In this document: piece after piece, positions 9,480 to 40,722 of the stretch
Numbering within the stretch: the stretch's first letter is position 1
Layout: each line of letters opens with the position of its first letter
Source: Candidatus Omnitrophota bacterium
GTDB lineage: Bacteria > Omnitrophota > Omnitrophia > Omnitrophales > JACQLI01
Assembly (NCBI GenBank): GCA_016204125.1
Contig: JACQLI010000023.1
Coordinates: 1 to 40,722, forward strand
Direction: 5' to 3'
Length of the DNA stretch: 40,722 bases
Notes under the pieces: generated by a model
The model's input: only the letters and a program-made list of their open reading frames with translations
Told to the model about the DNA's origin: nothing
Databases searched by the model: none
Position numbers and translations under genes: made by a program

Positions 9480-10819
9480 CCCAAAAAGAAATAAAAGATG
9501 CCATATTCAACCAAGCGAGACAAATCGAAGAAGTGAGGTTTCCCCTGATAGGTGAAATAGAAGTCTAGGTAATAAAGAAAAATCAAGCCCGAAAGCAGGA
9601 TCAGAGAACGCAGAGGTATGAAGAAAAGAAACGGAAAGATCCATGTGAGGTACCACGGATTTCCTGTTGGAGCGAGGAGAAAAAGGAACGTCAAAACCAC
9701 AAGCGAGGCCTGGCAGAAGGAAAGGAGATCCTCTTTTCTCTTAAGCCAATGAAGGACGAGAACAATAGCTGTGGAGAAAATTCCTCCAGCGATTATCCGA
9801 CTCATTGCATGAGTCCACTCATTATTCACCGGTAGCATTGAAACGCTGCCGTGAATCAAGCTAAACAGGCCGTCGTTGACCCTCCAAGAGGTTGCAAAGA
9901 TTCCCAAACCTTCAAAAAGAGAAACTCCCACACCGGAAAAAGGAAGGTAAAAGAGAACGAGTAAAACCAAAAAGAGTCCAACTCCCAGAAAGGTTTGGCG
10001 CCTTTGCTTTGGCAAAGTCCACGCGATAAGAAGCGGGAAAAGAACGACGGGAAACCATTTGGTTAAGGCGGCTAGACTAAGAAGTCCATAGGCGGATACG
10101 AGCCAGTCTCTCGTCAGGCAATAGATCATTCCCGTAAGAAAGAGAATAACAAACACATCAAGATGAAGGCTGTTTGAAAATTCTTTTAATACGAGAGGCG
10201 ACCAGGCATAAAGAAGACTCCATTCTTTGGAAATGTCAAAGCGCTTAAGAATAGCAACTGTCAGAGAGAGAATTCCAAGTTCAGCGACAAGAATCATCGC
10301 TTTCCAACCCCAGAGTTTCCAAGGCGTGATCCACTGAGACAGGGCAAAGAGAATCTGAGCGAAGGGAGGATAAATCGTTTTAATCCCCGGGTGATTGATT
10401 CTTTCAAAGACGGCTCCCATGTCGGGAGAGCTAATCTCTCCCCTTTCTTCTCCTGTCTGAAAAGCTTCCTTGGGCGAAAGCGCGTAGGGATTCTCTCCTC
10501 GGAGAAGCGTCTCGCCATCCCAAAGGTAGCGGTAAGGATCGGTTTCCTGAATCGGGTTGGATGGAAGATACGCAACACGGCAAAGAATGGCGATCACAAA
10601 AATCCACAGAGACAGAAAAGACTTTGAGTGAGTTTCTTTCGAATTCCTCCTTAACCACTCGAAGGTTGCAAAGTAAGCAATGAACGCCAAACCTTCAAGC
10701 ATAAGGAAAGATAGAATCGGCCGCTCCGCATGGCCCGCTCCGAAGACAAAAGAATGGCTAAGCCATGAAATCCCAATTTGCGTCAACAAAATGAACGCGC
10801 CCAAGACGATCAGAGTCAT
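9398..10819 (-). CDS. polytopic membrane protein, GT-C type (DUF2029/GT87-like) glycosyltransferase
   Basis: At least 10 hydrophobic segments. The first periplasmic loop carries ETDPYRYLWDGETLLRGENPY, resembling the acidic-loop motif of polyprenyl-phosphate-sugar dependent GT-C enzymes. Confidence 0.6.
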   Translation of the reverse strand: MTLIVLGAFILLTQIGISWLSHSFVFGAGHAERPILSFLMLEGLAFIAYFATFEWLRRNSKETHSKSFLSLWIFVIAILCRVAYLPSNPIQETDPYRYLWDGETLLRGENPYALSPKEAFQTGEERGEISSPDMGAVFERINHPGIKTIYPPFAQILFALSQWITPWKLWGWKAMILVAELGILSLTVAILKRFDISKEWSLLYAWSPLVLKEFSNSLHLDVFVILFLTGMIYCLTRDWLVSAYGLLSLAALTKWFPVVLFPLLIAWTLPKQRRQTFLGVGLFLVLLVLFYLPFSGVGVSLFEGLGIFATSWRVNDGLFSLIHGSVSMLPVNNEWTHAMSRIIAGGIFSTAIVLVLHWLKRKEDLLSFCQASLVVLTFLFLLAPTGNPWYLTWIFPFLFFIPLRSLILLSGLIFLYYLDFYFTYQGKPHFFDLSRLVEYGIFYFFLGWELWTKNQQFPLLFRLRTKEPLLLGR

Positions 10820-12090
10820 GGTCGAGTCCCCCGTTCACAAATTTGGGCAAACCTTTTCGCCGAAGGACGGATCTTTCGCTCCTGCGTTTCGTAATCCACC
10901 TCAATGAGCCCAAAGCGGGGTGAGAACCCTTCCGCCCATTCATAATTATCAAGCAGGGACCAGTAGAGGTAGCCAAAGACCGGGGCTCCTTCTTGGATCG
11001 CCTTCGCAAGTTCACCTAAATGGCTCTCGATAAATTCAAACCGCTCCTCGTCATGATCCGTGCAGACTCCGTTCTCGGTAACCAGGAGCGGAAGCTTATA
11101 TTGGGAGAATTCCTTGATGAGGCGGTAAAGGCCCTGCGGGTAGATTTCCCAGGAAAGAAAATTACGCCTGCCCACTTGCCGGTGGTGTTTCAAGGTACAG
11201 ATGTCGCCGAAGAGAGCGGGGATCCGAAAGCCCTCGTTATGAACAAAATCACGCGTGTAGTAATTCATGCCGATGAAATCAAGCGTGCGTGCCTTGGGGA
11301 GCTGAATCTTAAAAAGGCCGGGATAAAAAATGCGGCCGCGGATCAAGGCCCTGATGAAAAGATGATTGAACATCAGGTTCCGAATCCAAACGGAAATCCG
11401 GTCCTTCCAGGAACGGTCGGAACAGGGAGTAAAGATCAATACGTGTTTCGCAATCCCCACTTGGGCGGGTGAGCGCTTCAGCCGCTGGTTCACCTCTTTG
11501 ACGGCGTCGTAAGCCAGGACATGACCTTTGAGGAGATGGCCTAATGCTTGCAAGGTTTTTTCGTAGGATCTTTCAGCCGGAGGCCATTCCCCCATGAAGT
11601 AACTTTTAAAAACATAGGCGACAGGTTCATTTAAAGTGATCCAGTACCGGACACCTTCGCCGAGCGTTTCGACCGCTTTTCGGACATATCGTGCAAAAAG
11701 ATTCGGTGTCTTGTGTGAAAGCCATCCGCCCTGCTTGGCAAGCCAAAGAGGCAGGGTAAAATGATGCAGCGTGACGATGGGCTCTAACCGATTCAATTTG
11801 AGGGCCTCAATGACCTCGCGGTAATGCGAAAGCGCCTCCTCGTTGAATTGGCCTTCCTCGGGTTCGATCCGGCTCCATTCCAGGGAGAAGCGGTGGGCAT
11901 TATGGTGAAGAGATTTCGCCAAAGAGAAATCTTCCCGGAACCGATTCCAGTGGTCACAAGCCTTCCCGGAACGCTCTTTGACCTTCCCGTTTTGCTCCCA
12001 ATCCCACCAGTCACTGTTTATGTTATTTCCTTCCACTTGATGAGAGGAAGTCGCCGCCCCCCAAAGGAAATCTTTTGGGAATTCAAACAT
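10816..12090 (-). CDS. glycoside hydrolase family 1 (beta-glucosidase-like)
   Basis: FLWGAATSSHQVEGN, acid/base ITLNEP and nucleophile VTENG, with no signal peptide. I set the start at the ATG at 12090, preceded by GAGGTGAGGAAG. The ORF-track start at 12099 is a GTG. Confidence 0.9.
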   Translation of the reverse strand: MFEFPKDFLWGAATSSHQVEGNNINSDWWDWEQNGKVKERSGKACDHWNRFREDFSLAKSLHHNAHRFSLEWSRIEPEEGQFNEEALSHYREVIEALKLNRLEPIVTLHHFTLPLWLAKQGGWLSHKTPNLFARYVRKAVETLGEGVRYWITLNEPVAYVFKSYFMGEWPPAERSYEKTLQALGHLLKGHVLAYDAVKEVNQRLKRSPAQVGIAKHVLIFTPCSDRSWKDRISVWIRNLMFNHLFIRALIRGRIFYPGLFKIQLPKARTLDFIGMNYYTRDFVHNEGFRIPALFGDICTLKHHRQVGRRNFLSWEIYPQGLYRLIKEFSQYKLPLLVTENGVCTDHDEERFEFIESHLGELAKAIQEGAPVFGYLYWSLLDNYEWAEGFSPRFGLIEVDYETQERKIRPSAKRFAQICERGTRP

Positions 12091-12415
12091 CTTCCTCACC
12101 TCTCAACGCTTCAATAACGTCATCCGCACAATTTTCCCGCATAAGAAAATAGGTTTCGATAGCTTGAATCGCCATTTCAGCGTCATCTCCCTCTACCTCA
12201 ACGACCAGTTTTGATTTCCATGTCGCTCCTAAAAGGAGAAGCCCCAGAATGCTTTTCCCGTCCACCGAAAGCCTCCCCTTGCGGATCCGGATGTCAGAGC
12301 TAAATTGCTTAGCGAATAAGATAAAACGGGTTGCCGTGCGGGCATGAAGACCGAGCTGACACGGCATCGTTACTTCTGTCTTCCTGATCCTCGCGTCCTT
12401 GCTTTCGAGTTCCAT
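12083..12415 (-). CDS. ptsH: HPr-family phosphocarrier protein
   Basis: Active-site His context QLGLHARTA and regulatory Ser context DGKSILGLL. I set the start at the ATG at 12415, directly preceded by AGGAGGTGGGAG. Confidence 0.8.
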   Translation of the reverse strand: MELESKDARIRKTEVTMPCQLGLHARTATRFILFAKQFSSDIRIRKGRLSVDGKSILGLLLLGATWKSKLVVEVEGDDAEMAIQAIETYFLMRENCADDVIEALRGEEDV

Positions 12416-18829: not shown

Positions 18830-20650
18830 TTACTTAGGTTGGCTTTGATACAACGCTTCAATGATAGAAGCGTAACGCTCCATGACAACTCGGCGCTTCA
18901 CTTTGAGAGTGGGAGTCAGTTCACCTGCATCTTGCGTCAGTTCTTTCGGAAGGAGGTGAAAGTATTGGATCTGTTCGTAATGTGCGAATTCCTTTGTTCT
19001 TTCTCGAAGTCTTTGAGCGACGATCTCGTGAATCCGATTCTTTCGAAGTAAGTCTTCCCAAGATGAACTTTGAATTCCTTCTTCTTTAGACAAACGCTCC
19101 AGTTCATGCCTATTAGGAACGACCAGAGCTACAAGATAAGGTTTTCTGTCTCCAATGATAACGACTTGGCTAAAAAGAGAGTCGCCTAGAATCTCATTCT
19201 CGATATTTTGTGGTGAGATATTCTTACCGCCAGCTGTCACAATGATATCCTTTTTTCTCCCAGTAATTTTAAGGAATCCGTCCGAATCGATTTCTCCAAG
19301 ATCTCCTGTATAGAACCAGCCGTCACGGATGACTTCTCGTGTAGCCTCTTCGTTCTTAAAGTAACCCTTCATGATAAGAGGTCCTTTTGTCAAAACCTCC
19401 CCATCCTCAGCAATCCGAACTTCGACTCCTGGAAGCGGAGGCCCTACGGTTCCAAATTTAAAGTGATCAGGCCTATTTACAGAAATGACGGGTGAAGTTT
19501 CGGTCAGGCCGTAACCTTCCAGAATAAGGACATCAGCTGCATAGAAGAATTCACCCAGCTCTTTAGCCAAAGGCGCACCTCCCGAAATAAAAAAACGGAT
19601 TCGCCCCCCGAGACTACGCTTAAGTTTGTTGAAGACCAGGGCCTTTGCCAGCAAAAACTGAAGTTTCAGAAGCGGAGGCAACGGCTTTTTTGTAGCGCGC
19701 TTTTCTCCAGCTTTTCTTCCCACTTCGATGGACCAATGAAAGATCGCCTGTTTGAGAGGTGAACTCTTTTGAACCGTATCCACAATATGGGCGTGCATCT
19801 TCTCAAAAAAACGAGGCACGCTCGCTGCAACTGTCGGCCGAACAAGTAAAAGATCCTGTGCCACGGTCTGCATGTTCTCTGCATACGCAATCGATGCGCC
19901 TTGCTGGATCATAAAGTAATACCCCGCCATCCGTTCAAAAACGTGGCTCAAAGGTAGAAAAGAAAGTGTTCTCTCATTTTCTGGAAAAAGAAGGACTCCT
20001 GATGAGGCTTCGCAATTGGAAAGAAAATTGCCGTGGGTAAGCATCACCCCTTTGGGAGGCCCTGTTGTGCCAGACGTGTAGATGAGGGTAGCCAGATCAT
20101 CTCGTGTAACCTTCTGTACCAACTGATCGTACAGGTCCGAATTGTTAAGGTTGCCTAACCGCCCCTTCTCAAGGCAATCTGTAAAAGTCCACACATGGGG
20201 TGATTGGATCTCGCGAAGATCAAATCCGATAACGGTCTTGAGTTTCCCCTCTTGGACGAGAGGCTTGATTTTTTCAAACTGATCAACCGTGGAAACGAAA
20301 AGAACCGATACTTCGGCATGTTCTAAGACATAGTGACAGTCCTTGCGAGAACTGGTGGGGTAAATAGGAACTGAGGCAGCCCCCAGACTCAAAATTCCAA
20401 GATCGGCAAATGCCCATTCGGGACGATTTTCTGAAAGAATCCCCACTCGGTCGCCTCTTCGTACCCCCAGTTGGTAAAGGGCCAGGGTTACCCCCTGGAC
20501 TCGGTCTTGAAATTCCTTCCAAGTGAAGAATTGAAAGCGGCCTTCTTTCTTAAACCAAAGGGCGGGCTTATTAGGGGAACAATTTGCTCGCCAGATGAAC
20601 ATTTCGGCGAGACTTGAAGAAGATTTCGGTACTTGAGAAGCTTGCGTCAC
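18830..20650 (-). CDS. fadD: long-chain fatty acid-CoA ligase (AMP-forming)
   Basis: AMP-binding motif YTSGTTGPPKGV, plus GYGLTE and TGDLGEIDSDGFLKITGRKKD. The start codon is a GTG. Confidence 0.9.
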   Translation of the reverse strand: MTQASQVPKSSSSLAEMFIWRANCSPNKPALWFKKEGRFQFFTWKEFQDRVQGVTLALYQLGVRRGDRVGILSENRPEWAFADLGILSLGAASVPIYPTSSRKDCHYVLEHAEVSVLFVSTVDQFEKIKPLVQEGKLKTVIGFDLREIQSPHVWTFTDCLEKGRLGNLNNSDLYDQLVQKVTRDDLATLIYTSGTTGPPKGVMLTHGNFLSNCEASSGVLLFPENERTLSFLPLSHVFERMAGYYFMIQQGASIAYAENMQTVAQDLLLVRPTVAASVPRFFEKMHAHIVDTVQKSSPLKQAIFHWSIEVGRKAGEKRATKKPLPPLLKLQFLLAKALVFNKLKRSLGGRIRFFISGGAPLAKELGEFFYAADVLILEGYGLTETSPVISVNRPDHFKFGTVGPPLPGVEVRIAEDGEVLTKGPLIMKGYFKNEEATREVIRDGWFYTGDLGEIDSDGFLKITGRKKDIIVTAGGKNISPQNIENEILGDSLFSQVVIIGDRKPYLVALVVPNRHELERLSKEEGIQSSSWEDLLRKNRIHEIVAQRLRERTKEFAHYEQIQYFHLLPKELTQDAGELTPTLKVKRRVVMERYASIIEALYQSQPK

Positions 20651-21396
20651 CTGGCCTGTTCACGCGGCTGAAACCATCCCAACCACGCAGGCTTTTTGGG
20701 CTCTTGTTTTGGAGCTGGCTTAGGACTTTTTGGAGGAGCGGCTGTTGTCGGTTGGGGTATGAGTTTCGGCTTTTCTGTGGTCAATGGCTTAATTTCTTCT
20801 TTCTCTTCTTTTTTCTCTTTCTCCTCTTTCTTTTCTCCCTTTTCCTTTTTCTCTTTTTCCTCTTCTTCCTTGATTTTTTCTAATACGGACCGGTTTTGAC
20901 GAGCCTGCTCCTGAATCAGTCTGATTTTTTGGAGACGTACAATCTCTTCGGTGTTAGCAGTTCCTACTGTTATGGGTCGTGCCGCCTGTGCGCTGGATAG
21001 CTCGCTTAGAAGTCTTTGATGAACTCGCGCTTGTTCGGTAATCCTCTGTATTTCACGGAGCTGGGTCAACTGTTGAGTCTCAATCGATTGGTGGATCCGA
21101 ACAATATCTTGAAGATCCCGCTGAACTTCTGCAACAGCAGGATCAGGATAGGTTGGATTTACGCGCGCAGGGAGATCTTTAACAGGCCGGTAAATAGGCT
21201 GGACAATGGGCTGCATAGCTCCTGTGCCGGGCGCATCTTCCTGAACCGCCTGTTTAACCCATTGGATTTCTTCCTTTTTCTGTTCGGACTGCTCTTCTTT
21301 GTCGGAGGACTTCTTCTTGTCCTTTGCTGCAAATAGGACTTCGTTTCCCGTGATGTACATCAGAAGAAAAAGAAAAAAGAAAAATGAACGATTCAT
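20647..21396 (-). CDS. secreted low-complexity Glu/Lys-rich protein
   Basis: Signal-like MNRSFFFFLFLLMYITGNEVLFA, a Gln-rich helical middle, then the run KEEEEKEKKEKGEKKEEKEKKEEKEE. It lies between fadD and the hydratase gene. Confidence 0.55.
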   Translation of the reverse strand: MNRSFFFFLFLLMYITGNEVLFAAKDKKKSSDKEEQSEQKKEEIQWVKQAVQEDAPGTGAMQPIVQPIYRPVKDLPARVNPTYPDPAVAEVQRDLQDIVRIHQSIETQQLTQLREIQRITEQARVHQRLLSELSSAQAARPITVGTANTEEIVRLQKIRLIQEQARQNRSVLEKIKEEEEKEKKEKGEKKEEKEKKEEKEEIKPLTTEKPKLIPQPTTAAPPKSPKPAPKQEPKKPAWLGWFQPREQAR

Positions 21397-28255: not shown

Positions 28256-28648
28256 CTATTCAAGCTCGGAGACTTGCTCGGGGTCTGTAAAATCGTTGAC
28301 CTTCGTCTCCAACCAATGATTGTATGCGTAATCCAAGACACGAAACTTGTCAACAGGGTCCATCATCATGAAACGGACTCCAAGATCGTACCCCTGATCC
28401 TGTCCTCTCAAGGTCTGGCTCCACACCACTTTACCTGTGGTACGAACAGGTTTGGGGTCATCGGGAATGTCCAGTTCAAGATCGAGTGTTGATCCTTCAG
28501 GAATCTGGGTGGGTGAGTTGATCTTAAGCCCTTCCCGAGAAAGATCTTTGCTTAGAGCTATCCCGCGACTTCCGTCTGTATTCGGCAGCTCATAACGGAC
28601 GCTCATGTAGGCGTCGAAGCGTTTGAATTTCCGCCTCTCCTTTTCCAT
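28256..28648 (-). CDS. PilZ domain protein
   Basis: RRKFKRF (RxxxR) and DLSREGL (DxSxxG) with the usual spacing. Confidence 0.75.
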   Translation of the reverse strand: MEKERRKFKRFDAYMSVRYELPNTDGSRGIALSKDLSREGLKINSPTQIPEGSTLDLELDIPDDPKPVRTTGKVVWSQTLRGQDQGYDLGVRFMMMDPVDKFRVLDYAYNHWLETKVNDFTDPEQVSELE

Positions 28649-28782
28649 AGTGAGTCTCCTTCTTCTTAATGCTTTCTTGCTTCCCTTTTTATATCATCGA
28701 CAGAAATGAGATAAACCACACCGTCATCTCTTAACTCTTTTATTAGCAAGGGGTTAGAACCACTTTCTAAACCGCTAAAGAA

Positions 28783-28811
28783 ACTATAACACACGCTTCG
28801 TGTATTTACAA
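28783..28811 (-). promoter_or_regulatory. sigma-70-like promoter candidate for the PilZ gene
   Basis: The minus strand reads TTGTAA, a 17-nt spacer, then TATAGT. The spacer contains the palindrome ACACG-CTT-CGTGT. Confidence 0.4.
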
Positions 28812-28838
28812 GAGTGGGGAGCACTTTTTTTAGAAAGT

Positions 28839-28899
28839 CTGGCTCACTATCGGCCTCTGCTGATAGCTGAAGTGCCTATCACCTTACTTGGACATGCAG
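28839..28899. repeat. half-copy of the intergenic palindromic repeat family (copy C)
   Basis: tctggctcactatcggcctctgctgatagctgaagtgcctatcaccttacttggacatgcag matches 32412-32470 at roughly 40 of 57 positions in my hand alignment. It contains CTATC-N10-GATAG-N9-CTATC. Confidence 0.6.
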
Positions 28900-28902
28900 T
28901 CG

Positions 28903-29400
28903 TCAGCGGTAGTTGATAAATTGAAGAGGAACGCTCGAAGGGTAATTCTTGAGATGCTGAATGACGTTTTGAAGATCGTCTTTGGAACGTGAACTGACGC
29001 GAACCTCATCACCTTGAATCGCGGCCTGTACCTTAAAACCTGTTTTTTTGATTTCTTTCACAATCTCCTTCGCTTTTTCGCCAGGGATCCCCACTGTGAG
29101 TTTGACTTCCTGACGTATCAATCCATCAAAGGCTTTGTCTTCACTCCCCCATTCCAGTGACTTAAGAGGAACCTTCCGCGATGCTAATCGAGTGGTTAAA
29201 ATATCACGCAAATTTTTAAGTTTCAGTTCGTCATCTGCAAGAAGTAAGATTTTCTTTTCGTCTCGATTCCAATCGATCGTGCTCTGGCTTCCTTTGAAAT
29301 CGAAACGACCGGCCAATTCCTTCTTTGCCTGATTGATCGCATTGTCTACTTCCTGAAGATCCACGCGGGAGACAATGTCAAAGGAAAATTCGTTGGCCAT
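28903..29400 (-). CDS. yajQ: YajQ family (UPF0234) nucleotide / cyclic-di-GMP-binding protein
   Basis: FSFDIVSRVDLQEVDNAINQAKKELAGRFDFKG is the hallmark N-terminus, and the length of about 165 aa fits. Confidence 0.9.
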   Translation of the reverse strand: MANEFSFDIVSRVDLQEVDNAINQAKKELAGRFDFKGSQSTIDWNRDEKKILLLADDELKLKNLRDILTTRLASRKVPLKSLEWGSEDKAFDGLIRQEVKLTVGIPGEKAKEIVKEIKKTGFKVQAAIQGDEVRVSSRSKDDLQNVIQHLKNYPSSVPLQFINYR

Positions 29401-31068: not shown

Positions 31069-31377
31069 TCACTTCTTGGGTGTTGCTGGTGCTTGTTTCT
31101 TCTTCTCTGCGCCCGCAGCTGGGGCTGCTGGGGAAGGAGTGGCGGCTGGCGCAGCTGTTCCCGGGGCTGGTGCTGCCGCCCCTTCTGCTGTAGCTTTTTC
31201 AGCCTTCACCTTCTTCATTTTAATCTTAAGTGACTTGACCTTTGGGAGACCGAATACGGAGTTTCGATCGTTCCATTTTTCCGCTTCCTGCAAGCGATGG
31301 ATTCGTTCATGACGCTTCAGAACGTTCCGATGCTTGGTTCGCGTTGGGTCAAATCTGAGACTTGAATGTTGTGACAT
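31069..31377 (-). CDS. small basic protein with Ala/Pro-rich tail
   Basis: TKHRNVLKRHERIHRLQEAEKW...SVFGLPKVK resembles the small basic protein family I associate with Planctomycetota and Verrucomicrobiota. The tail is AAAPAPGTAAPAATPSPAAPAAG. Confidence 0.55.
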   Translation of the reverse strand: MSQHSSLRFDPTRTKHRNVLKRHERIHRLQEAEKWNDRNSVFGLPKVKSLKIKMKKVKAEKATAEGAAAPAPGTAAPAATPSPAAPAAGAEKKKQAPATPKK

Positions 31378-31384
31378 TTTGTCT

Positions 31385-32182
31385 TTAACTCCGATTTAAG
31401 AGTCGAATTCGCTCCCTCGCTTCTTCGACCTTTTCTCCCGTGCCTCCCGTTTCGAAAAAGGCCTGATAGTGCTGGAGGGCGAGGGCATGATTATACTCGT
31501 CATCGTAAATTTTTGCCAGTTGAAAGTGAGCCAAACTATACGTTGGATTGATGCTCAGGGCTTTTTGATAACTTTCGATGGCCATGCGTGACTCACCTTG
31601 AGAATGGTAGAATTCACCCAGGTTAAAATATGCAACAACGAGTTGGGGATTGAGTTCAACGGCCTTCTTAAAGTGATGGAGCGCAAGCTGGGAGGATCCC
31701 TTCTGAAGATAAGCATCCCCTAAGTTATTGTGAGTTAGTGCAAGATCAGGGTTGAGCTTTAAAGCAACTTGATACTCTTTAATCGCCTGATCATACTCTT
31801 TTCGGTGGTAGTAAAGATTGGCCAAATTGGTGTGAAAAGGGGCTTCTTGAGGGGCAAGACGAACGGCCTTTTTGTAGTATTTTTCGGCTTCTTCCAACTC
31901 CCCCTTTTCCTGCAGGATATTCCCAAGGTTATTGTAGGGTGTGGGGAGAGCTGGGTCTTTTTCGATAGCCCTTTTATAATGCTGGATAGCCTCTTCCACC
32001 TTCCCTAGATCCTCCAAGATGAGGGCCTCATTATGGAGAATAGTGGCCTCCTGCCAGGGTTCTAGGGGTGCATCCTCCGGCTTGGTGGAAGCGTAAGAAG
32101 GGTAGGGAGTTAAGGAAATTGCCCAGAGAAGAAAAACTAGGAGAAAAAAGGAGTGAGGCTTCCGAATTACAGGATCATTCAC
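31385..32182 (-). CDS. tetratricopeptide repeat protein with signal peptide
   Basis: Six or seven tandem 34-aa TPR units (recurring A..Y..AL.L.P....A..NLG pattern). The start codon is a GTG. Confidence 0.85.
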   Translation of the reverse strand: MNDPVIRKPHSFFLLVFLLWAISLTPYPSYASTKPEDAPLEPWQEATILHNEALILEDLGKVEEAIQHYKRAIEKDPALPTPYNNLGNILQEKGELEEAEKYYKKAVRLAPQEAPFHTNLANLYYHRKEYDQAIKEYQVALKLNPDLALTHNNLGDAYLQKGSSQLALHHFKKAVELNPQLVVAYFNLGEFYHSQGESRMAIESYQKALSINPTYSLAHFQLAKIYDDEYNHALALQHYQAFFETGGTGEKVEEARERIRLLNRS

Positions 32183-32227
32183 GAACCTTATGATACTGAT
32201 TTAGGGTGTCGTAGGCAACGATGTTCC

Positions 32228-32470
32228 CTTGATAGACGGCCGCATGACCAAGTAGGGTGATACATACACCGTTATCTCGTAGATAAGATAATGGCTGACC
32301 AACAAGTTCTGCTGATACGTGGGTAATCGTCACCCTAGTTGGACACGCAGCTTTGATAGACTGGATGACCAAGTGGTGTGATGCTGACACTGTTATCTGC
32401 AGCATAAAGTGATGGCCGGCTATCGGCTTCTGCAGATAACTGCTGTAGCTATCACGCCACTTAGACGTAG
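32228..32470. repeat. tandem pair (period 124 nt) of long imperfect palindromic repeats, copies A and B
   Basis: gataga recurs at 32231 and 32355. Copy B folds as a hairpin: 32373-32382 pairs with 32451-32460 (10 bp), about 6 bp follow, then gttatctgcag (32392-32402) pairs with ctgcagataac (32430-32440, 11 bp perfect). Copy A is a degenerate version whose outer stem is tagggtga / tcacccta. Confidence 0.7.
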
Positions 32471-33051
32471 GACCCTTTGATAGGACGAATGTAGGCGTCG
32501 TCGGGGGCAAAACCGTCTCGCCTGAGTCGAATGAGTTTTTCTTTTGCCTCACCCATATTTTCAAAACCATCGATGCAAACTTGGAAAAATTTTCCGTTCC
32601 CACCAGGAAGAATGAAGGCGTGATAACCGAGATTTGTAAGTTTGTCGGTCTCTTTCTCCGCACGAGACTTACTCGTATATGTAATCAACTGAATGGCATA
32701 CCTCCCGCTAGGTTCAACGGATGTTTCCCTAATTTCTGAAATAGAGGTTTCTTTTTGATGAGCTACTGCAGCTGTCGAGATGATATCGGGCTGGGCTTTT
32801 TGTGCAAGTTCTTTGGTGATCTCTTCTTCGCTTCTTTTCTTGGCCGCCTGTTCTTCTAAGGCAAATCGTTTACCCTTCTCAACGCCAAAGGAAAACACAA
32901 GCACATACAAAACGAGAGCCAGAATGGCCCCGACCGCTATGTGATCAAGACGTAGGGTAATGTGGAACCGATCCATCCAACTTATCTGGGAACTGGGGAA
33001 TTTTGATGCATCCACTACAGGTCCTGTGACTTCAAAAAGCTCACCCTGCAT
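32461..33051 (-). CDS. SPOR domain membrane protein
   Basis: TM helix IAVGAILALVLYVLVFSF and a C-terminal YAIQLITYTSKSRAEKETDKL...FFQVCIDGFENMGEAKE. Confidence 0.7.
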   Translation of the reverse strand: MQGELFEVTGPVVDASKFPSSQISWMDRFHITLRLDHIAVGAILALVLYVLVFSFGVEKGKRFALEEQAAKKRSEEEITKELAQKAQPDIISTAAVAHQKETSISEIRETSVEPSGRYAIQLITYTSKSRAEKETDKLTNLGYHAFILPGGNGKFFQVCIDGFENMGEAKEKLIRLRRDGFAPDDAYIRPIKGSYV

Positions 33052-33066: not shown

Positions 33067-34326
33067 TTAGGTTCTGCCAAAAATTTGTTCGCAACTTTTT
33101 CTAAGTACTTGGGCGCTTGGCCTTACCCGACGGGATTGATTCGTGTAGTCCACCTCTACAATCCCGAAGCGAGGCTTGAAACCTTCTGCCCACTCGAAAT
33201 TATCGACCAAAGACCAATAAAGATAACCCAAAATTGGTATTCCTTCTTTTTTGGCCTTCTCAAGCTCGGCAAGATGGGCCTCAATATAGCGCTGGCGAAG
33301 GGAATCATCCTCTGAACAAACTCCATTTTCCGTAATGAGGATGGGTAGCTTCAGGTCACGGTAAGAAGTCACAATTTCATAGATACCCCTTGGGTATATC
33401 TCCCACCCTAAGTCGTTGATTTCCCCCACTTCTTTGCCGTGGTGACTCTTAGGACAGATGGCTCCGAATTGGTCAAGCCCCCAAAGTCCCTGGAACCTGA
33501 CAAAGTCTCTGCTGTAATAGTTGATTCCTAGGAAATCGAGACTCTTTCTTGCTGGCAACTTCTCGCAGAAAACCCCAGGAAAGAAGAGAAAACCCGAAAG
33601 AAGGGATCTCAAGATAAGCTGGTTAACGAACCAACTTCTGAAGAAGAGGCTGAGACGATCGAAGGGCGATTTTCGATTACAAGGAGTGAAGGCGATTGTG
33701 TGTTGAGCAATGGAGACTGAACAGTCGGCGCCTCGTGCATACTCATGCAAAATCTGATAAGCCAAAACGTGGGCCTTGAGAAGTTGACGGAGAGCGTTCA
33801 ATCCTTTATCGAGAGATTTTTCTCCAGGCGGCCAGATACCGACAATAAAACTTTGATAGATGTAAATCAGCGGCTCATTGAGAGTGATCCAGATGCGGAC
33901 ACGACGACCGAAACGCTCGGCGACTCGCGTGACGTAGAGTGCAAATCTTTCAGCCGCATTTTTCTGAAGCCAGCCTCCCCGTCTCGCAAACCAAATCGGA
34001 TTGGTAAAGTGATGGAGGGTTACGACGGGCTCGAGCCCCTGCGATTCCAAGCAATCAAAAACTTTCTCATAGTGACGAAAGCCTTCCTCGTTCCAATGCC
34101 CTTCTTCGGGTTCCAGACGACTCCATTCAATGGAAAAGCGGTGCGCGGTGTGTCCTAAGGATTTGGCGAGTTGGAAATCCTCTGCGAAGAGGCGATATTG
34201 ATCACAGGCGTTGAGGGAACACTCTTTGACTTTACCTAATTCTTCCCAGGCCCACCAGTCATTCCACCTGTTGTTACCTTCAACCTGATGAGCCGAAGTC
34301 ACCGCCCCCCAGATTGGCTTCAACAT
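33067..34326 (-). CDS. glycoside hydrolase family 1 (second paralog)
   Basis: IWGAVTSAHQVEGNN, ITLNEP and ITENG. I set the start at the ATG at 34326 (MLKPIWG), 4 nt after the lepB stop. Confidence 0.9.
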   Translation of the reverse strand: MLKPIWGAVTSAHQVEGNNRWNDWWAWEELGKVKECSLNACDQYRLFAEDFQLAKSLGHTAHRFSIEWSRLEPEEGHWNEEGFRHYEKVFDCLESQGLEPVVTLHHFTNPIWFARRGGWLQKNAAERFALYVTRVAERFGRRVRIWITLNEPLIYIYQSFIVGIWPPGEKSLDKGLNALRQLLKAHVLAYQILHEYARGADCSVSIAQHTIAFTPCNRKSPFDRLSLFFRSWFVNQLILRSLLSGFLFFPGVFCEKLPARKSLDFLGINYYSRDFVRFQGLWGLDQFGAICPKSHHGKEVGEINDLGWEIYPRGIYEIVTSYRDLKLPILITENGVCSEDDSLRQRYIEAHLAELEKAKKEGIPILGYLYWSLVDNFEWAEGFKPRFGIVEVDYTNQSRRVRPSAQVLRKSCEQIFGRT

Positions 34327-34330
34327 GGGG

Positions 34331-34987
34331 CTAGGAATCCTTGATGAGACGAAATCGTTGAGGGGGCCACCAGATGAGAACGGCCCTGCCAATCATATCT
34401 TTCTTGGACACAAATCCCCAGTTTCGACTGTCACTTGACTGGGCCGAATTATCTCCCAAGACGAAGTAATGATCTTTCGGAATAAGTATCTTCTGACCTG
34501 CCTTGCCGTAATCCCAATCCTCACGGTTGTAATAAAAATGTTCTGCAAGGACTGGTGGAGTTTCGAGCTTCTGGCCATTGATGAAGACTTCACCGCTTCG
34601 GATCTCTATCGTTTCACCGCCAAAAGCGATCAGTCGTTTCACAAAGTCTTTCTTTCTATCCATCGGGTATTTGAAAACTACAATGTCACCCCGTTGAGGC
34701 TCGTGGAACCGATAGGAAATTTTGTCTACAAAGATTCGATCTCCTTCCATCAAAACTGTACGCATGGAACCTGTGGGAATCTTGTAGGGGCCAAGAAGAA
34801 AGCTACGAATAGCGATAGCCAAGATGGCTGCAACGAAGAGCGGCTTGATCCAATTTTCCCATTTGTCGCGAGCCCAAATTTGTCGATTCAATCTAAAAAG
34901 TTGCCAGTCGGCCACAATCTTCTTGCGATAGAAAACGACGAGCGTAACCGCCAGTAAAACGAGAATGAGGGAGTTGGAAGAACTCAT
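34331..34987 (-). CDS. lepB: signal peptidase I
   Basis: Catalytic-Ser context GSMRTVL, Lys box VKRLIAFGGETIE, and GDNSAQSSDSRNWG. Confidence 0.9.
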   Translation of the reverse strand: MSSSNSLILVLLAVTLVVFYRKKIVADWQLFRLNRQIWARDKWENWIKPLFVAAILAIAIRSFLLGPYKIPTGSMRTVLMEGDRIFVDKISYRFHEPQRGDIVVFKYPMDRKKDFVKRLIAFGGETIEIRSGEVFINGQKLETPPVLAEHFYYNREDWDYGKAGQKILIPKDHYFVLGDNSAQSSDSRNWGFVSKKDMIGRAVLIWWPPQRFRLIKDS

Positions 34988-36774
34988 GACTTCTCTCCCA
35001 TTTTAAGAACAGACATGAAGGCCTCTTGCGGCAAATCCACTTTTCCAATCCTCTTCATCCTCTTCTTTCCTTCTTTTTGCTTTTCCCAAAGCTTTCTCTT
35101 CCTTGTGATGTCGCCCCCATAACACTTACCCGTCACATTTTTCTTTAAGGCGCTGATCGATTCTCTGGCGATGATTTTTGAACCGATGGCCGCTTGAATC
35201 ACGACTTCAAAAAGTTGTCTTGGAATAACCTCTTTGAGTCTTTCGGCTAACTCTTTCCCCTTATAGTACGCCCTATCCCGAATCACAATGCTACTTAATG
35301 CATCGACAGGTTCTCCATTAATCAATATATCAAGCTTCGCGAGTTCAGCGGGGAGGTAACCGATAAAATCGTAGTTGAGGGATCCATAACCCGAAGTCAT
35401 TGACTTAATCTTGTCATAGAAGTCGATTAAAACTTCGGCGAAGGGCAGTTCGTAACGAAGAAGCGCCCGAGTGGGGTCAAGATACTCTGTGCTCTTATAG
35501 ATTCCGCGGCGATCTTGGCAGAATTGCATCACAGGACCGAGGGCTTTAGCGGGGATAATCAGTTGGGCCTCAATGAAGGGTTCCTCAAATTCCTTTATCT
35601 CCTGAGGAGAAGGCATTTGAGTAGGGTTGTCAAGTTCCATGACTTTCCCGTCTGTCTTGGTAATTCGGTAAACAACGTTGGGTGCTGTGATTAAAAGTTC
35701 GAGACTAAATTCCCGTTCGAGTCTTTCACGAATGATATCCATATGAAGAAGGCCCAGAAACCCACAGCGGTAACCAAATCCGAGCGAGGCGGATGTCTCA
35801 GGTTCATAGTGAAAAGAGGCATCGTTTAAGCGAAGTTTGTCCATGGATTCTCTAAGAACAGAAAAATCCTTCTGGTTCACTGGATAAAAACCTGCGAAGA
35901 CCATAGGTTTCATCTCTTGGTAACCAGGAAGGGGTTCCTCGGTTGGTTGGCCTGCAAGCGTAACCGTATCACCAATTTTGACTCGATTTACATCCTTGAT
36001 GTTTGCCGCTACATAACCTACCTCCCCGACTCCTAAGGAGGCCACTTTGTGAGGATGAGGGTTGAAAATCCCAACCTCCTCAACCTCATGTTCCGTTTGC
36101 GCCCTCATCATTCGGATCTTATCCCCTGTTCGAAGAATCCCGTCAAACACGCGGAGGTAGGCAATCACCCCTTTGTAGGTGTCATATTTGGAATCAAAAA
36201 CGAGCGCCTTAAGGGGTTTCTTGGAATCGCCTTCGGGTGGAGGGATACGTTCAATCACGGCGTCCAGTACTGCTTCAATACCAACGCCTGTCTTCGCACT
36301 CGTTAAGACGGCCTCTTCCTTGCCGCAACCTGTGAGTTCTGAAATTTCATTCTTGGCTTTCTCGGGTTCAGCGTTGGAAAGATCGATTTTCGAAATGACA
36401 GGGATAACGGTAAGGTTTCTTTCCATGGAGAGGTAATAGTTGGTCATCGTCTGCGCTTGAACTCCCTGCGTTGCATCCACCAAAAGGATTACACCTTCGC
36501 AGGCAGCAAGGCTTTTCCTCACTTCATAAGTGAAATCAATATGTCCAGGTGTATCGATGAGGTTTAATTCGTAATCCTTATAGCGGATCCGAACGGCACG
36601 CGCCTTGATGGTGATTCCCCTTTCCCGCTCAAGCTCCATGTCATCGAGAAACTGCTCGTGGAATTCCCTTTGAGAGATCGCGTGGGTCAAAAGAAGGAAG
36701 CGGTCAGCGATGGTTGATTTCCCATGATCGATATGGGCAACGATTGAGAAATTTCTGATTTTATCGGGATGCAC
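34984..36774 (-). CDS. lepA: translation elongation factor 4
   Basis: NFSIVAHIDHGKST, LIDTPGH and the LepA-specific C-terminal region. It has the classic lepA-lepB order with a 4-nt overlap. Confidence 0.97.
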   Translation of the reverse strand: MHPDKIRNFSIVAHIDHGKSTIADRFLLLTHAISQREFHEQFLDDMELERERGITIKARAVRIRYKDYELNLIDTPGHIDFTYEVRKSLAACEGVILLVDATQGVQAQTMTNYYLSMERNLTVIPVISKIDLSNAEPEKAKNEISELTGCGKEEAVLTSAKTGVGIEAVLDAVIERIPPPEGDSKKPLKALVFDSKYDTYKGVIAYLRVFDGILRTGDKIRMMRAQTEHEVEEVGIFNPHPHKVASLGVGEVGYVAANIKDVNRVKIGDTVTLAGQPTEEPLPGYQEMKPMVFAGFYPVNQKDFSVLRESMDKLRLNDASFHYEPETSASLGFGYRCGFLGLLHMDIIRERLEREFSLELLITAPNVVYRITKTDGKVMELDNPTQMPSPQEIKEFEEPFIEAQLIIPAKALGPVMQFCQDRRGIYKSTEYLDPTRALLRYELPFAEVLIDFYDKIKSMTSGYGSLNYDFIGYLPAELAKLDILINGEPVDALSSIVIRDRAYYKGKELAERLKEVIPRQLFEVVIQAAIGSKIIARESISALKKNVTGKCYGGDITRKRKLWEKQKEGKKRMKRIGKVDLPQEAFMSVLKMGEKS

Positions 36775-36782
36775 AGAAAGAT

Positions 36783-37445
36783 TTAGCGAGACTTGCGGAG
36801 GTTCTCAATGGCTTTTGCGCGATCTCTTTGCCCAAAGATCGCCGTTCCTGCAACTAAAACATTGGCCCCGGCCTCAATAGCTCGGGGGGCGGTCTCGGGA
36901 TCGATTCCTCCATCTACAGAGATTTTGCCCTTGAAACGGGAGCGGAGATTCTTTACTTTCTCGAGCATCTCTGGCATGAATTTTTGCCCGCCAAAGCCTG
37001 GTTCGACGGTCATCACAAGCACAAGGTCGAGTCCATCAAGGAAAGGAAAAATCTTCTCGACGGGTGTTTTGGGACGGAGTGAAATTCCAACCTCTGCACC
37101 CAGACGTTTGATTTCTCCGAGGGTCTTTGCCACATCCTGACAAGCTTCCACATGAACAGTGATGGCATCGGCTCCTGCTTTTCGGAACGCTTCGAGATGG
37201 CGAATCGGTTCGTCAATCATCAAATGGACATCGAGCGGAAGCTTTGTGCATTTCCTGACCCAAGCCACTACCACCGGTCCAATGGTGAGATTAGGGACAA
37301 AGTGCCCATCCATGATATCAATGTGAAGAATGTCGCAACCGCCACGCTCCACTTCGCCAACTTCCTCTCTCACCCGTGAAAAATCACAGGAAAGGAGACT
37401 GGGCGCAACAAATACTTTACTACTTGTCTTTAAAGTTGGTTTCAT
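36783..37445 (-). CDS. rpe: ribulose-phosphate 3-epimerase
   Basis: APSLLSCDF, HIDIMDGHFVPN and VEPGFGGQKF. Confidence 0.93.
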   Translation of the reverse strand: MKPTLKTSSKVFVAPSLLSCDFSRVREEVGEVERGGCDILHIDIMDGHFVPNLTIGPVVVAWVRKCTKLPLDVHLMIDEPIRHLEAFRKAGADAITVHVEACQDVAKTLGEIKRLGAEVGISLRPKTPVEKIFPFLDGLDLVLVMTVEPGFGGQKFMPEMLEKVKNLRSRFKGKISVDGGIDPETAPRAIEAGANVLVAGTAIFGQRDRAKAIENLRKSR

Positions 37446-38731
37446 TGGATGATAAAACTTCTCTTAATCTTCTCCTGTTCCTTCTCTTTCAACGGACCCA
37501 CAAGAGCAAGGTTGGCACGGGCAGTCTTAAAAATATGTTGAGCTATCTTTTGAATATCTTGGGTGTTCACCTTTTCGATTTCCTGGGTGATTTTCTCGCG
37601 GGCAGGGATTTCCTCAAGATAAAGCACTTTCTCGCCTGCCCAGAGTAAATGATCCAAGGTATCCTCAAGTCCCATCAAAAATTGACCTGTAAAGTAATCC
37701 TTCGCACGTCTCAGCTCCTCCTTCGACACCGACCTGCGGGCTATTTTCTGGAGCTCTTGAAGAATCACTCGAATGGCCAAGCCCGCTTTACGGTTCTCAA
37801 CACCTGCAGAGATAGCAACCGATCCCGTATCTTGATAATGACCGACTCCTGATTTAATCTCATAGGCAAGACCTCTTTTTTCTCGGACCTCCTCAAAAAG
37901 CCGAGAGCTCATGTTGGCCCCCAAAATAATATTGAGAAGTCCTAGGGCAAACCGCCTTGGATCTTTTCTCGAGACACCGTGAAAACCGATCACCAAATGA
38001 GTCTGCTCCGTCTCCTTTTCTACGAAATGAAAACGAGGTTTTGTCTGCTGCGACTGGACTCCTTGGAATCGAGAAGGAATTCCTCCATTTTTGGCAGGAA
38101 AATTTTTTTCTGTCTCTCTGACGACCTCCTGATGTGAAAGAGGTCCAGAGACAGAGACCAAAATGTTCTTGGGTTGATAATACTTCTTCTTGAACCCAAC
38201 CATATCTTGACGCCTGATTGACGAGACAGACTCAAAACATCCCGCCACGGAACGTCCCAGAGGTTGTTCAGGCCAAAGGAGCTCCCCCATCAGCTCATGC
38301 ACGTATTGAGCAGGTTGATCCTTGTACATCTTGATTTCTTCCAAAATGACGGGGCGTTCTCTCTCAAGCTCTTTTTTGGAAAGAGCGGCATCCCTGACCA
38401 TATCAGAAAGAACGTCAAGGGCACGGGCAAAGTGTTCGGCGGGAAGCTTTGAAAAATAGCAAGTCGCTTCTTCGGCCGTGAAAGCATTCAACATCCCGCC
38501 CACACCCTCTACTTCTTTCTTGATCTGTTTTGAACTCCTTTTCCCCGTTCCTTTAAAAAGCATGTGCTCCAGGAAATGAGAAACCCCCGAAATTTTCTTG
38601 GGTTCATAGCGACCACCCACCTTGACCCAGATCGCAACTGCGGAAGATTCCCGGTCTGCCATTGGAATGGTAAGAATCTGAACGGCGTTCGAAAGTTGTG
38701 AAAGTTGGTATCTCTGCGGCGCTTTAAGCAT
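37442..38731 (-). CDS. M16 family (pitrilysin-like) zinc peptidase
   Basis: Inverted zinc motif HFLEHMLFKGT with the downstream Glu region. Confidence 0.88.
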   Translation of the reverse strand: MLKAPQRYQLSQLSNAVQILTIPMADRESSAVAIWVKVGGRYEPKKISGVSHFLEHMLFKGTGKRSSKQIKKEVEGVGGMLNAFTAEEATCYFSKLPAEHFARALDVLSDMVRDAALSKKELERERPVILEEIKMYKDQPAQYVHELMGELLWPEQPLGRSVAGCFESVSSIRRQDMVGFKKKYYQPKNILVSVSGPLSHQEVVRETEKNFPAKNGGIPSRFQGVQSQQTKPRFHFVEKETEQTHLVIGFHGVSRKDPRRFALGLLNIILGANMSSRLFEEVREKRGLAYEIKSGVGHYQDTGSVAISAGVENRKAGLAIRVILQELQKIARRSVSKEELRRAKDYFTGQFLMGLEDTLDHLLWAGEKVLYLEEIPAREKITQEIEKVNTQDIQKIAQHIFKTARANLALVGPLKEKEQEKIKRSFIIQ

Positions 38732-39143
38732 TTTTTCTCGTGTCGAGGTAACTTTGAAGAATCCTTTGGGCTGCCAAACGATCTCGAATCCCCCGCCTTT
38801 TCTTCCTGCTCAAATCAGCTTCCAGAAGGATGGCCTCCGCCTCGACTGTTGTGAAGCGTTCATCCCACAAAACCCATTCCATGGAAAGACTCTCTTTAAG
38901 CCAATCTACCATTGCTAGAACCTTTTTCGCTGCAAAGCCTCTTTCTCCGCTAAGTGTCTCAGGAAGTCCCACAACCACCTTCTCAGGCCCCAGTTCTTCC
39001 AAACATTCTTTCAATTGCCTCAGAAGGTCGTCTTTTGTTTTGAAGGTTAAAGTCGCGTACGCCTCGGCAATAGTTCCCGTCTCATCGCTTCTTGCAACGC
39101 CAACTCTTTTCTCTCCTAAATCAAGACCCACCAAGACCCCCAT
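38724..39143 (-). CDS. ruvX: Holliday junction resolvase-like RuvX (YqgF)
   Basis: GLDLGEKRVGVA N-terminus, DERFTT, and a length of about 139 aa. Confidence 0.85.
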   Translation of the reverse strand: MGVLVGLDLGEKRVGVARSDETGTIAEAYATLTFKTKDDLLRQLKECLEELGPEKVVVGLPETLSGERGFAAKKVLAMVDWLKESLSMEWVLWDERFTTVEAEAILLEADLSRKKRRGIRDRLAAQRILQSYLDTRKNA

Positions 39144-39147
39144 CCCA

Positions 39148-39960
39148 TTACTTCCTCTTCGAGTTACGCAGGGGGCTCAGGAGTGAATTCACATACGAAA
39201 CAACGGAGCCAAGTCTTCCTCCTGATTGACGAATCTTATCAACAATCGCGCTTCCGACAATCACCCCATCCGCCAAACGAGACATCGCCTTCACCTGTTT
39301 AGGTGAGGAAACCCCGAATCCAATCAAAACAGGCTTTCGGCCGAAACGTGCTAGAGCTCGAAGATTTTTTCGTAGGTCTTCGGGGACAAATCCTCGCGCA
39401 CCTGTCACGCCGCGAACCGATACATAATAGAGGAAACCCTGTGTCCTCGCAAAAATTTTTCGCGCTCGGTCAGGAGTAGTAGTGGGAGCAGCGAGAAAGA
39501 CAGGAGCAATTCCAGCCTTTTTGCAAGCCTTCCAGAGCGAAAGATCTTCCTCAGGAGGACAATCGGGCACAAGAAGACCGTCGAAACCTGCCTGCTTAAG
39601 CCGAGCTGGGAAAGTCTTGACCCCTGCATGATAGATTGGATTGAGGTAGGAAAAGAAAATGACAGGGACGTCAACCCCTTTGCGGCGCAAGTTTTTCACG
39701 ACCCGCAAGGCATCCTGGATCGTAACCCCCTTTTTCAAGGCAGCTTCAGAAGAAAACTGAATGGTAGGTCCATCTGCCAAAGGATCTGAAAAAGGAAAAC
39801 CAAGTTCAATGAGATCAACGCCTTGCTCGGCAAAGTCTTCGATGAGCTTTTCCGTTGCCCGAACACTGGGATAACCCAAGGTTAAGAAGGCGCAAAAGAT
39901 CTTTCGTTTGGCGCGTTTGGCTTGAGCAAGTTTTTTAACGAGTCGATTTTTTGATAACAT
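39148..39960 (-). CDS. trpA: tryptophan synthase alpha chain
   Basis: [22 protein letters not shown] and GFGVS. I set the start at the ATG at 39960, which has an AAGGA upstream. The ORF-track start at 39978 is a GTG. Confidence 0.92.
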
Positions 39961-40722
39961 CAATATCCTTGTCTCCACGGCCCGACAAGCAGACCGCTAC
40001 TGTTTCGCCAGAACGGGTTCGTCTCATCAGGCGCTTCAGGAAAGCGATGGCATGGGCAGGCTCTAAGGCAGGCATGATTCCTTCAAGCTCAGTGAGTAGT
40101 TTAAACCCCTCTAAAGCTTCTCGATCGGTAACGGTCTCATATTGGACGCGTCCTATCTCTTTAAGATAGGCGTGTTCAGGACCCACCGAAGGGTAATCCA
40201 GTCCTGCTGAAATCGAATGGGCAAGCTCGACTTGGCCATTCTCGTCTTGCAAAAGATAACTCTTCATTCCATGAAGAATGCCCACCGAACCACGCGTAAG
40301 CGACGCAGCGTGTTTGCCGCTTGTCAGACCCTTTCCAGCTGCCTCGACACCAAAAAGTCGCACCCGAGATTTTTCAATAAAAGGATGAAAAAAACCGATG
40401 GCATTACTTCCTCCGCCTACACAGGCAACAAGATAATTGGGTAACCGCCTTCCTTTCGAAGCCGATGGAAACTGCCTGAGAGTCTCCTTTCCAATCACCG
40501 ATTGGAAATCTCTCACCATCATGGGATAGGGATGAGGGCCCACCACACTTCCAAGAAGGTAATAGGTTGTTTCCACATTGGTAACCCAGTCTCGGATCGC
40601 TTCGTTCGTGGCATCTTTGAGAGTTCTCGAACCTGAACGAACGGGAACAACTTTCGCGCCAAGCAAGTTCATCTTGTAGACGTTGAGCGCCTGCCTTTTA
40701 ACATCCTCTTCCCCCATGTAGA
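39935..40722 (-). CDS. trpB: tryptophan synthase beta chain (partial, N-terminus beyond the window edge)
   Basis: [25 protein letters not shown] and [13 protein letters not shown]. The reading frame stays open to the window edge. Confidence 0.95.

Follow-up and report, generated by a model that had tools for sequence, protein, structure and literature searches.

Bacterial MITEs are defined by their small size, inverted repeats, a target duplication and an RNA hairpin (PMC3184786). MITEAba12, for example, is 113 bp long and has 16-bp terminal inverted repeats and 9-bp duplications (PMC6382973). The hairpins of ERIC/IRU, YPAL, Correia and RUP elements have been reported to change mRNA stability or processing (PMC2229807, PMC3184786). 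Here we describe two adjacent palindromic units (A and B) behind a SPOR-domain gene and a one-armed copy (copy C) behind a YajQ-family gene of an uncultivated Omnitrophota bacterium. All of them lie in the window (the whole 40,722-nt stretch of DNA that was analysed), in which all genes are on the minus strand. Judging from the sequence, we consider it likely that units A and B and copy C are members of a small non-autonomous transposable element and that the family was previously undescribed. The element would be an ordinary kind of genome parasite, namely a bacterial MITE that, like ERIC and Correia elements, is palindromic over its whole length.

Palindromic units between the SPOR and TPR genes

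The gap between the SPOR and TPR genes covers 32183-32460 (278 nt). The features of this locus, in gene-sense order, are:

32461-33051, minus strand: SPOR-domain gene (Pfam PF05036), whose 3' end is the insertion site of the repeats
32473-32484, minus strand: direct-repeat copy 1, CCTATCAAAGGG; SPOR codons P-I-K-G, read as the ancestral target sequence
32361-32472, minus strand: unit B, palindromic element of 112 nt, limits taken from the flanking direct repeats
32351-32360, minus strand: direct-repeat copy 2, TCTATCAAAG; between B and A
32237-32350, minus strand: unit A, palindromic element of 114 nt in the same orientation as B, limits taken from the flanking direct repeats
32226-32236, minus strand: direct-repeat copy 3, TCTATCAAGGG; after A
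32190-32218, minus strand: promoter-like site TTGCCT-17-TATCAT between unit A and the TPR start, outside the repeat; a putative promoter
31385-32182, minus strand: TPR gene (Pfam scan), 265 aa
Element termini: CTGCRTGTCCAAG... and CTGCRTGTCCAAGT...

The preliminary description had reported the same 278-nt gap and, within it, two tandem units of about 124 nt marked by a gataga landmark at 32231 and 32355. The gap coordinates, both landmarks and their spacing of 124 nt were found as claimed, and the two palindromes do lie in tandem. The units, however, are 112 and 114 nt long, and 124 nt, which is no multiple of three, is the repeat-to-repeat period. The landmark itself is part of a 10-12-nt direct repeat at the flanks of the units, which the earlier reading had missed.

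Each element is built of two imperfect inverted-repeat arms of ~45 nt around an asymmetric centre of ~20 nt, and because of this asymmetric centre the element has a polarity. In unit B the inner stem (GTTATCTGCAG/CTGCAGATAAC) has 11 perfect bp with 27 nt between its arms, an exact match to the earlier reading. The outer 10-bp stem (32373-32382 with 32451-32460), also described before, consists of nine Watson-Crick pairs and one T.G. The SPOR reading frame ends inside unit B, which supplies its final three codons (S-Y-V) and the stop codon TAA (32461-32472). Unit A has terminal arms of 22 nt with 82% complementarity. It had been called a decayed copy of B, a view that does not hold: A has arms of its own and is no nearer to B than to copy C. 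Alignments between A and B extend over 74 nt at 70% (spacing 121) and over 135 nt at 68%, and the overall identity is 65-70%. The five arms (two from each unit, reverse-complemented where needed, and the one of copy C) share one consensus, ...CTGCWGATAAC-(8-9 nt)-TATCAC-nnn-ACTTGGWCATGCRG. The outer ends of the units read CTGCRTGTCC.../...GGWCATGCRG. A further fragment had been proposed at 32190-32216. The five-arm profile finds none there at E<10, and the only similarity is a 10-nt inverted match at chance level.

Both units are predicted to fold into stable hairpins on either strand. In minus-sense RNA the folding energy is -48.5 kcal/mol (z -5.2) for unit B and -46.0 kcal/mol (z -4.2) for unit A. 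In plus-sense RNA it is -48.1 kcal/mol (z -3.7) for B and -39.4 kcal/mol (z -2.8) for A. Each z value is based on 200 dinucleotide shuffles, at most one of which folded as well as the unit. In the strand comparison, unit A folds 4.6 kcal/mol better in the minus sense and unit B slightly better in the plus sense. The earlier hint of an antisense-strand transcript, taken from one non-Watson-Crick pair in B, is not supported by the G-U counts of the two units: B has five such pairs in the plus sense versus one in the minus sense, and A has six in the minus sense versus four in the plus sense.

A frame of 162 aa (32175-32663, minus strand) is open from inside the SPOR gene through both units to the TPR start. 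One Logan assembly has a 76-aa part of the open frame over the repeat annotated as a gene. This ORF has no homologue among 5.8 billion proteins (the search returned only the ORF itself) and no Pfam family, and it is most likely spurious.

Direct repeats and empty sites in relatives

A direct repeat of 10-12 nt, (C/T)CTATCAA(A)G(GG), flanks the two units on the outside and also separates them, with its copies lying precisely on the element boundaries. In gene sense the order is ...CGT CCT ATC AAA GGG, unit B, TCTATCAAAG, unit A, TCTATCAAGGG, AACATCG.... The copy next to the SPOR gene consists of the gene's own conserved codons R-P-I-K-G, and the direct-repeat alignment bears out the earlier remark that the similarity runs into the last SPOR codons. 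In an alignment of 16 SPOR homologues R-P-(L/I)-K-G is conserved; their C-terminus reads ...DA(Y/F)(I/V)R(P/S)(L/I/F), mostly followed by K-G, S-G or N and then by two to six variable residues. Since repeat copy 1 is conserved coding sequence in the SPOR homologues, it is older than the elements. Because this coding sequence reappears at the far boundary of each unit, the direct repeats look like a target-site duplication. The length of the duplicated target lies between 9 and 14 nt, an uncertainty due to the single-base indels by which the three copies differ. When the flanks are joined and the one-base-shorter downstream repeat copy is kept, the SPOR tail is open as ...PIKGTSLPTTP*. With the upstream repeat copy kept, the tail is ...PIKGNIVAYDTLNQYHKVRE*, and either may be ancestral.

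For the SPOR protein 98 homologues were found. Identity to the best full-length ones, one of which is named Candidatus Omnitrophica, is 55-58%, and the closest homologue (P0005) shows 67% identity over a partial match. Five syntenic loci (L013-L017) were compared with the window. They count as four or five loci (the SPOR protein of L015 is also that of L016), and the relatives are probably Omnitrophota. The order in all five is GH1 - SPOR - short gap (~100-140 nt, with a GGTATAAT box) - 96-106-aa protein - GNAT - SPOR - PilZ - YajQ - PilZ. All five run from the SPOR stop to the promoter box without repeats. The -10 hexamer of the promoter-like site at 32190-32218 aligns with this conserved GGTATAAT box. 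The arm profile and an inverted-repeat search found nothing comparable in ~50 kb of the relatives' DNA. The window contains two glycoside hydrolase family 1 genes (10816-12099 and 33067-34392, minus strand). The one adjoining the SPOR gene is syntenic with the relatives; the synteny ends near 21.4 kb, short of the second.

The TPR gene is missing in all five syntenic relatives, where the SPOR gene is followed directly by the gene for the small 96-106-aa protein. It therefore counts as an insertion of its own, on the downstream side of the promoter-like box. We considered whether this insertion was tied to the repeats and rejected the idea: the promoter-like box lies between them, with its -10 aligned to the conserved box of the relatives. 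In the window only 7 nt separate the TPR stop codon from the ATG of the next gene. This gene (31069-31377, minus strand) encodes a small, very basic protein of 102 aa (MSQHSSLRFDPTRTKHRN...), which has no Pfam family and keeps its position in all relatives. In the relatives it is preceded by a GGTATAATGC box (L013:10690-10740, L015:3615-3660, L017:945-990) and then by a hairpin-like leader, TTCCCTGCC...CTGCGGGCA. Both are conserved there, and the leader has been lost or replaced in the window. The leader could be a cis-regulatory RNA motif of the 102-aa protein gene.

The second locus is 3.4 kb away from the units and has the following features:

28903-29400, minus strand: YajQ-family gene
28832-28902, minus strand: copy C, 71 nt, one-armed (5' arm and asymmetric centre on the gene-sense strand)
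28256-28648, minus strand: PilZ gene

Copy C begins directly after the YajQ TGA stop and lies upstream of a conserved PilZ promoter-like box. It was detected by blastn of the gap against the window (match to unit B, 28834-28899, E 5e-6), and the arm profile matches it as well. The preliminary description had proposed a dispersed repeat family, and with copy C there is indeed at least one further copy elsewhere. Relative to L013, L014 and L015, copy C is a clean insertion of 71 nt. In L013 and L015 the YajQ stop is followed directly by (G/A)AAAAAG...CCCTTGTAAA...GTGTGTTATAGTTTCTT, and all four sequences conserve this box. In the window 71 additional nt (28832-28902) lie between the YajQ TGA and that run. 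Copy C folds no better than shuffles, and its flanks show no recognisable duplication. Its right flank, TCTAAAAAAAG, is vaguely like the TCTATCAAAG target. A box upstream of the PilZ gene, CTTGTAAA-(17 nt)-TATAGTTTCTT at 28775-28825 (minus strand), is near-identical in the window, L013, L014 and L015 and is probably the PilZ promoter.

On the window the arm profile finds exactly the five arms above noise, and no other palindrome of comparable length was found there. Extension of the contig by 2.4 kb and 0.25 kb with Logan assemblies yielded no further copy. The copies known are thus two and a half, at two loci, all within 3.6 kb, among ~43 kb of this organism. Three Logan assemblies (SRR12113383-SRR12113385) have an identical arrangement across the repeat, and no insertion polymorphism between close strains was seen. 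The relatives in which the sites are empty are only distantly related (full-length SPOR identity no higher than 58%), which points either to old insertions or to a poorly sampled lineage. A Logan contig of SRR12113385 (L019:2423-9953) is 99.76% identical to 33192-40722 of the window over 7.5 kb and other contigs from these runs are 100% identical, so at least two closely related strains coexist in the sample.

Database searches and alternative explanations

Rfam gave no match at the gathering threshold in the whole window. At the region itself, with E values up to 10 allowed, only noise with E>3 was returned, namely JPX_1 (a eukaryotic lncRNA) and MIR2629 (a microRNA precursor). This agrees with the earlier statement that the repeat matches no Rfam family, attC site or CRISPR repeat, the latter two being rejected here on anatomy. 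The tRNA/tmRNA and tandem-repeat finders reported nothing at the locus. Elsewhere in the window a CT-rich low-complexity tandem repeat (periods 9-21) is present at 20793-20871 inside an ORF without Pfam family (20647-21396). By blastn, no similar DNA was found in 5,426 complete E. coli genomes (word size 11), in 72,556 plasmids or in 50,697 phage records; the E. coli result means that the repeat is not ERIC, REP or BIME. Degenerate patterns built from the arm consensus were scanned against GTDB genomes, JGI metagenomes and IMG/VR, with one match (a Clostridia MAG), eight matches and none, respectively. The GTDB and JGI matches are single arms with chance-level scores and without a partner arm. 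Gene lists and Pfam scans of 30 further ORFs revealed no transposase or integrase in the window. Neither a terminator-like site nor a U-tract was found at the locus, and a reading of the hairpins as terminators was rejected for this reason.

Units A and B are adjacent, in the same orientation and have an identical 124-nt repeat-to-repeat period, and recombination between direct repeats gives exactly the order repeat-unit-repeat-unit-repeat. This is what would be left by a local duplication scar, in which unequal recombination between the flanking repeats doubled a single palindromic insertion (or a palindrome that had arisen on the spot, together with one flanking repeat) and the two copies then drifted apart with no ongoing mobility. 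Duplicates should be closest relatives, but A and B are the least alike pair. In the 65 columns common to all three copies they share 36 identities (55%), whereas each shares 42 (65%) with copy C, 3.4 kb off, and A-B was the closest pair in 122 of 5000 bootstraps (2.4%). Tandem duplication of one from the other is therefore unsupported, and by this alignment copy C is the one that stands nearer to the ancestor common to A and B. The flanking repeats are ~90% identical while the units are only 55-70% identical. Copy C is also a clean insertion at a second locus, so the sequence has moved at least once. A duplication scar is unlikely on these grounds. The sequence could have moved in another way, as a REPIN/REP-like or IS200/IS605-derived element carried as single-stranded DNA by RAYT or TnpA (Y1) and placed, without target duplication, next to a short target, e.g., 3' of TTGAT on the plus strand. 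On the plus strand TTGAT, a known target of ISDra2, stands in front of each unit and once more behind unit B. GTRG tetranucleotides are present in three of the five arms, tandem head-to-tail insertion beside a recurring target is natural for this mechanism, and long extragenic hairpin doublets in tandem resemble REPINs and BIMEs (PMC3184786). The repeated flank, however, is 10-12 nt rather than 4-5 nt and spans both sides of TTGAT, and such elements duplicate no target. Copy C has no TTGAT before or after it. The arms are not G+C-rich REP hairpins, and their internal 4-bp stems are at chance level. No Y1 transposase or RAYT gene was found in the window, nor was there a match to E. coli REP/BIME DNA. 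We give this mechanism a low probability.

The stability of the hairpins and their location, at both loci directly behind a stop codon and upstream of the next promoter-like box, would also suit a cis-acting or small-RNA element (a 3'-UTR stabiliser, terminator/attenuator or sRNA gene) that was selected and kept for function. Between A and B, 4 of 25 pairs have changed on both sides and are still paired, a comparison of two full sequences that has almost no power. Such an element is missing in every syntenic relative and so is no conserved part of the operon. It has no Rfam match, U-tract or terminator-like site, its G-U strand preference is contradictory between A and B, and copy C has lost one arm and folds no better than shuffles. 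Same-side arms of different copies are 71-72% alike versus 60-67% for the two arms of one copy. This pattern agrees with a common origin in a single element whose ends differed slightly and does not fit selection for pairing, and nothing in the arm-identity matrix suggests that the two arms of a unit evolve in concert. Maintenance as a functional RNA is in our estimate quite improbable. A further alternative is an integron attC site, or a site of another site-specific recombination system, through which the TPR gene arrived as a cassette; this neighbouring gene is itself missing in the relatives. The attC sites are imperfect palindromes of 57-141 nt behind cassette ORFs. The outer ends of both units lack RYYYAAC / GTTRRRY core sites, no ORF separates the two adjoining palindromes, and nothing comparable follows the TPR gene, which ends 7 nt from the next gene. 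A promoter-like box separates the repeats from the TPR gene, and no integrase was found in the window. We consider a cassette origin extremely improbable.

Putative insertion history and comparison with known systems

The properties of the repeats agree well with those of a MITE. The units are small (112 and 114 nt) and without coding capacity, the only ORF having no homologue. Terminal inverted repeats are present as the 22-nt arms of A and the 10-bp outer and 11-bp inner stems of B. A and B are flanked by an apparent target-site duplication, and empty sites exist in distant relatives, five at the SPOR site and three at the YajQ site. On the gene-sense strand the predicted RNA stem-loops have energies of -46 to -48.5 kcal/mol (z -4.2 to -5.2). 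Because the direct repeats copy coding sequence and empty sites exist at both loci, the MITE-like reading is much stronger than that of a structured RNA or a local duplication.

We propose the following course of events for a MITE-like element. A transposase encoded elsewhere in the genome would have placed the element in (G)TC(C)TATCAAAG(GG), where the SPOR gene ends, with a target duplication of ~10-12 bp. Later the same target copy would have received another, diverged member of the family, giving repeat-B-repeat-A-repeat (the order of the two events is our inference). A third insertion would have taken place directly behind the YajQ stop and would since have lost one arm. Units A and B are accordingly read as two putative independent insertions of diverged members into the same target, and copy C as an older, half-deleted insertion. 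The arrangement suggests a preference for a TCTATCAAAG-like target, and two insertions into the same 10 bp presuppose that this preference is strong.

At either locus the repeats follow a stop codon and precede the promoter-like box that belongs to the next gene, so the message of the upstream gene probably includes the hairpins at its 3' end. In such a place REP, ERIC and Correia elements influence how stable an mRNA is or how it is processed (PMC3184786). The hairpins could likewise slow 3' exonucleases or stop read-through, effects that have been reported for these elements. Their survival behind stop codons may also reflect that insertions there do little harm. There is an outside chance of something more unusual: a target-specific element that recognizes a ~10-bp TCTATCAAAG-like gene-end target or a resident hairpin, builds head-to-tail arrays and rewrites C-termini or stop codons by means of a transposase type not yet linked to MITEs, or else hairpins recruited by the host as transcript ends, in a lineage whose locus shows no terminator-like site. 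The finding bears on open mechanistic questions only if strong target specificity or a role at the RNA level is demonstrated.

If the MITE-like reading is correct, the repeats would form a new family of palindromic elements in the uncultivated Omnitrophota, where mobile elements have barely been catalogued. They would also offer a concrete case of an element that has taken the place of a gene's final codons and its stop. Annotators should mark the 278-nt gap as a repeat region and not as a gene. Such repeats can also break metagenomic assemblies.

Among known systems, MITEs such as MITEAba12 share the size (~110 nt), the lack of coding capacity, the terminal inverted repeats, duplications of ~10 bp, the location in or next to genes and the predicted RNA hairpin. 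The repeats differ from MITEs in that the whole element is palindromic, not the termini alone, and they have no sequence similarity to anything searched. They also resemble ERIC/IRU and YPAL of enterobacteria, Correia elements of Neisseria and RUP of pneumococcus, which are imperfect palindromes of 100-170 nt in transcribed intergenic DNA, often found right behind genes and co-transcribed with them. These families duplicate TA or a few bases, whereas the flanking repeat here is 10-12 nt; the host belongs to a different phylum, and blastn against 5,426 E. coli genomes revealed no related DNA. REPINs and BIMEs are likewise extragenic, hairpin-forming inverted doublets of ~100 nt that can occur in tandem clusters. 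REPINs, however, lack a target duplication and have G+C-rich REP hairpins with a conserved 5' tetranucleotide (GTAG-type head), in contrast to the 10-12-nt flanking repeat and the moderately A+T-rich arms without a stable internal REP hairpin in this family. Rickettsia palindromic elements (RPE) are palindromic repeats of ~100-150 nt that can enter coding sequence, as does unit B, which gives the SPOR gene three codons and a stop. RPEs are inserted in frame and translated throughout, whereas only the edge of the element is translated here and the 124-nt period is not a multiple of three.
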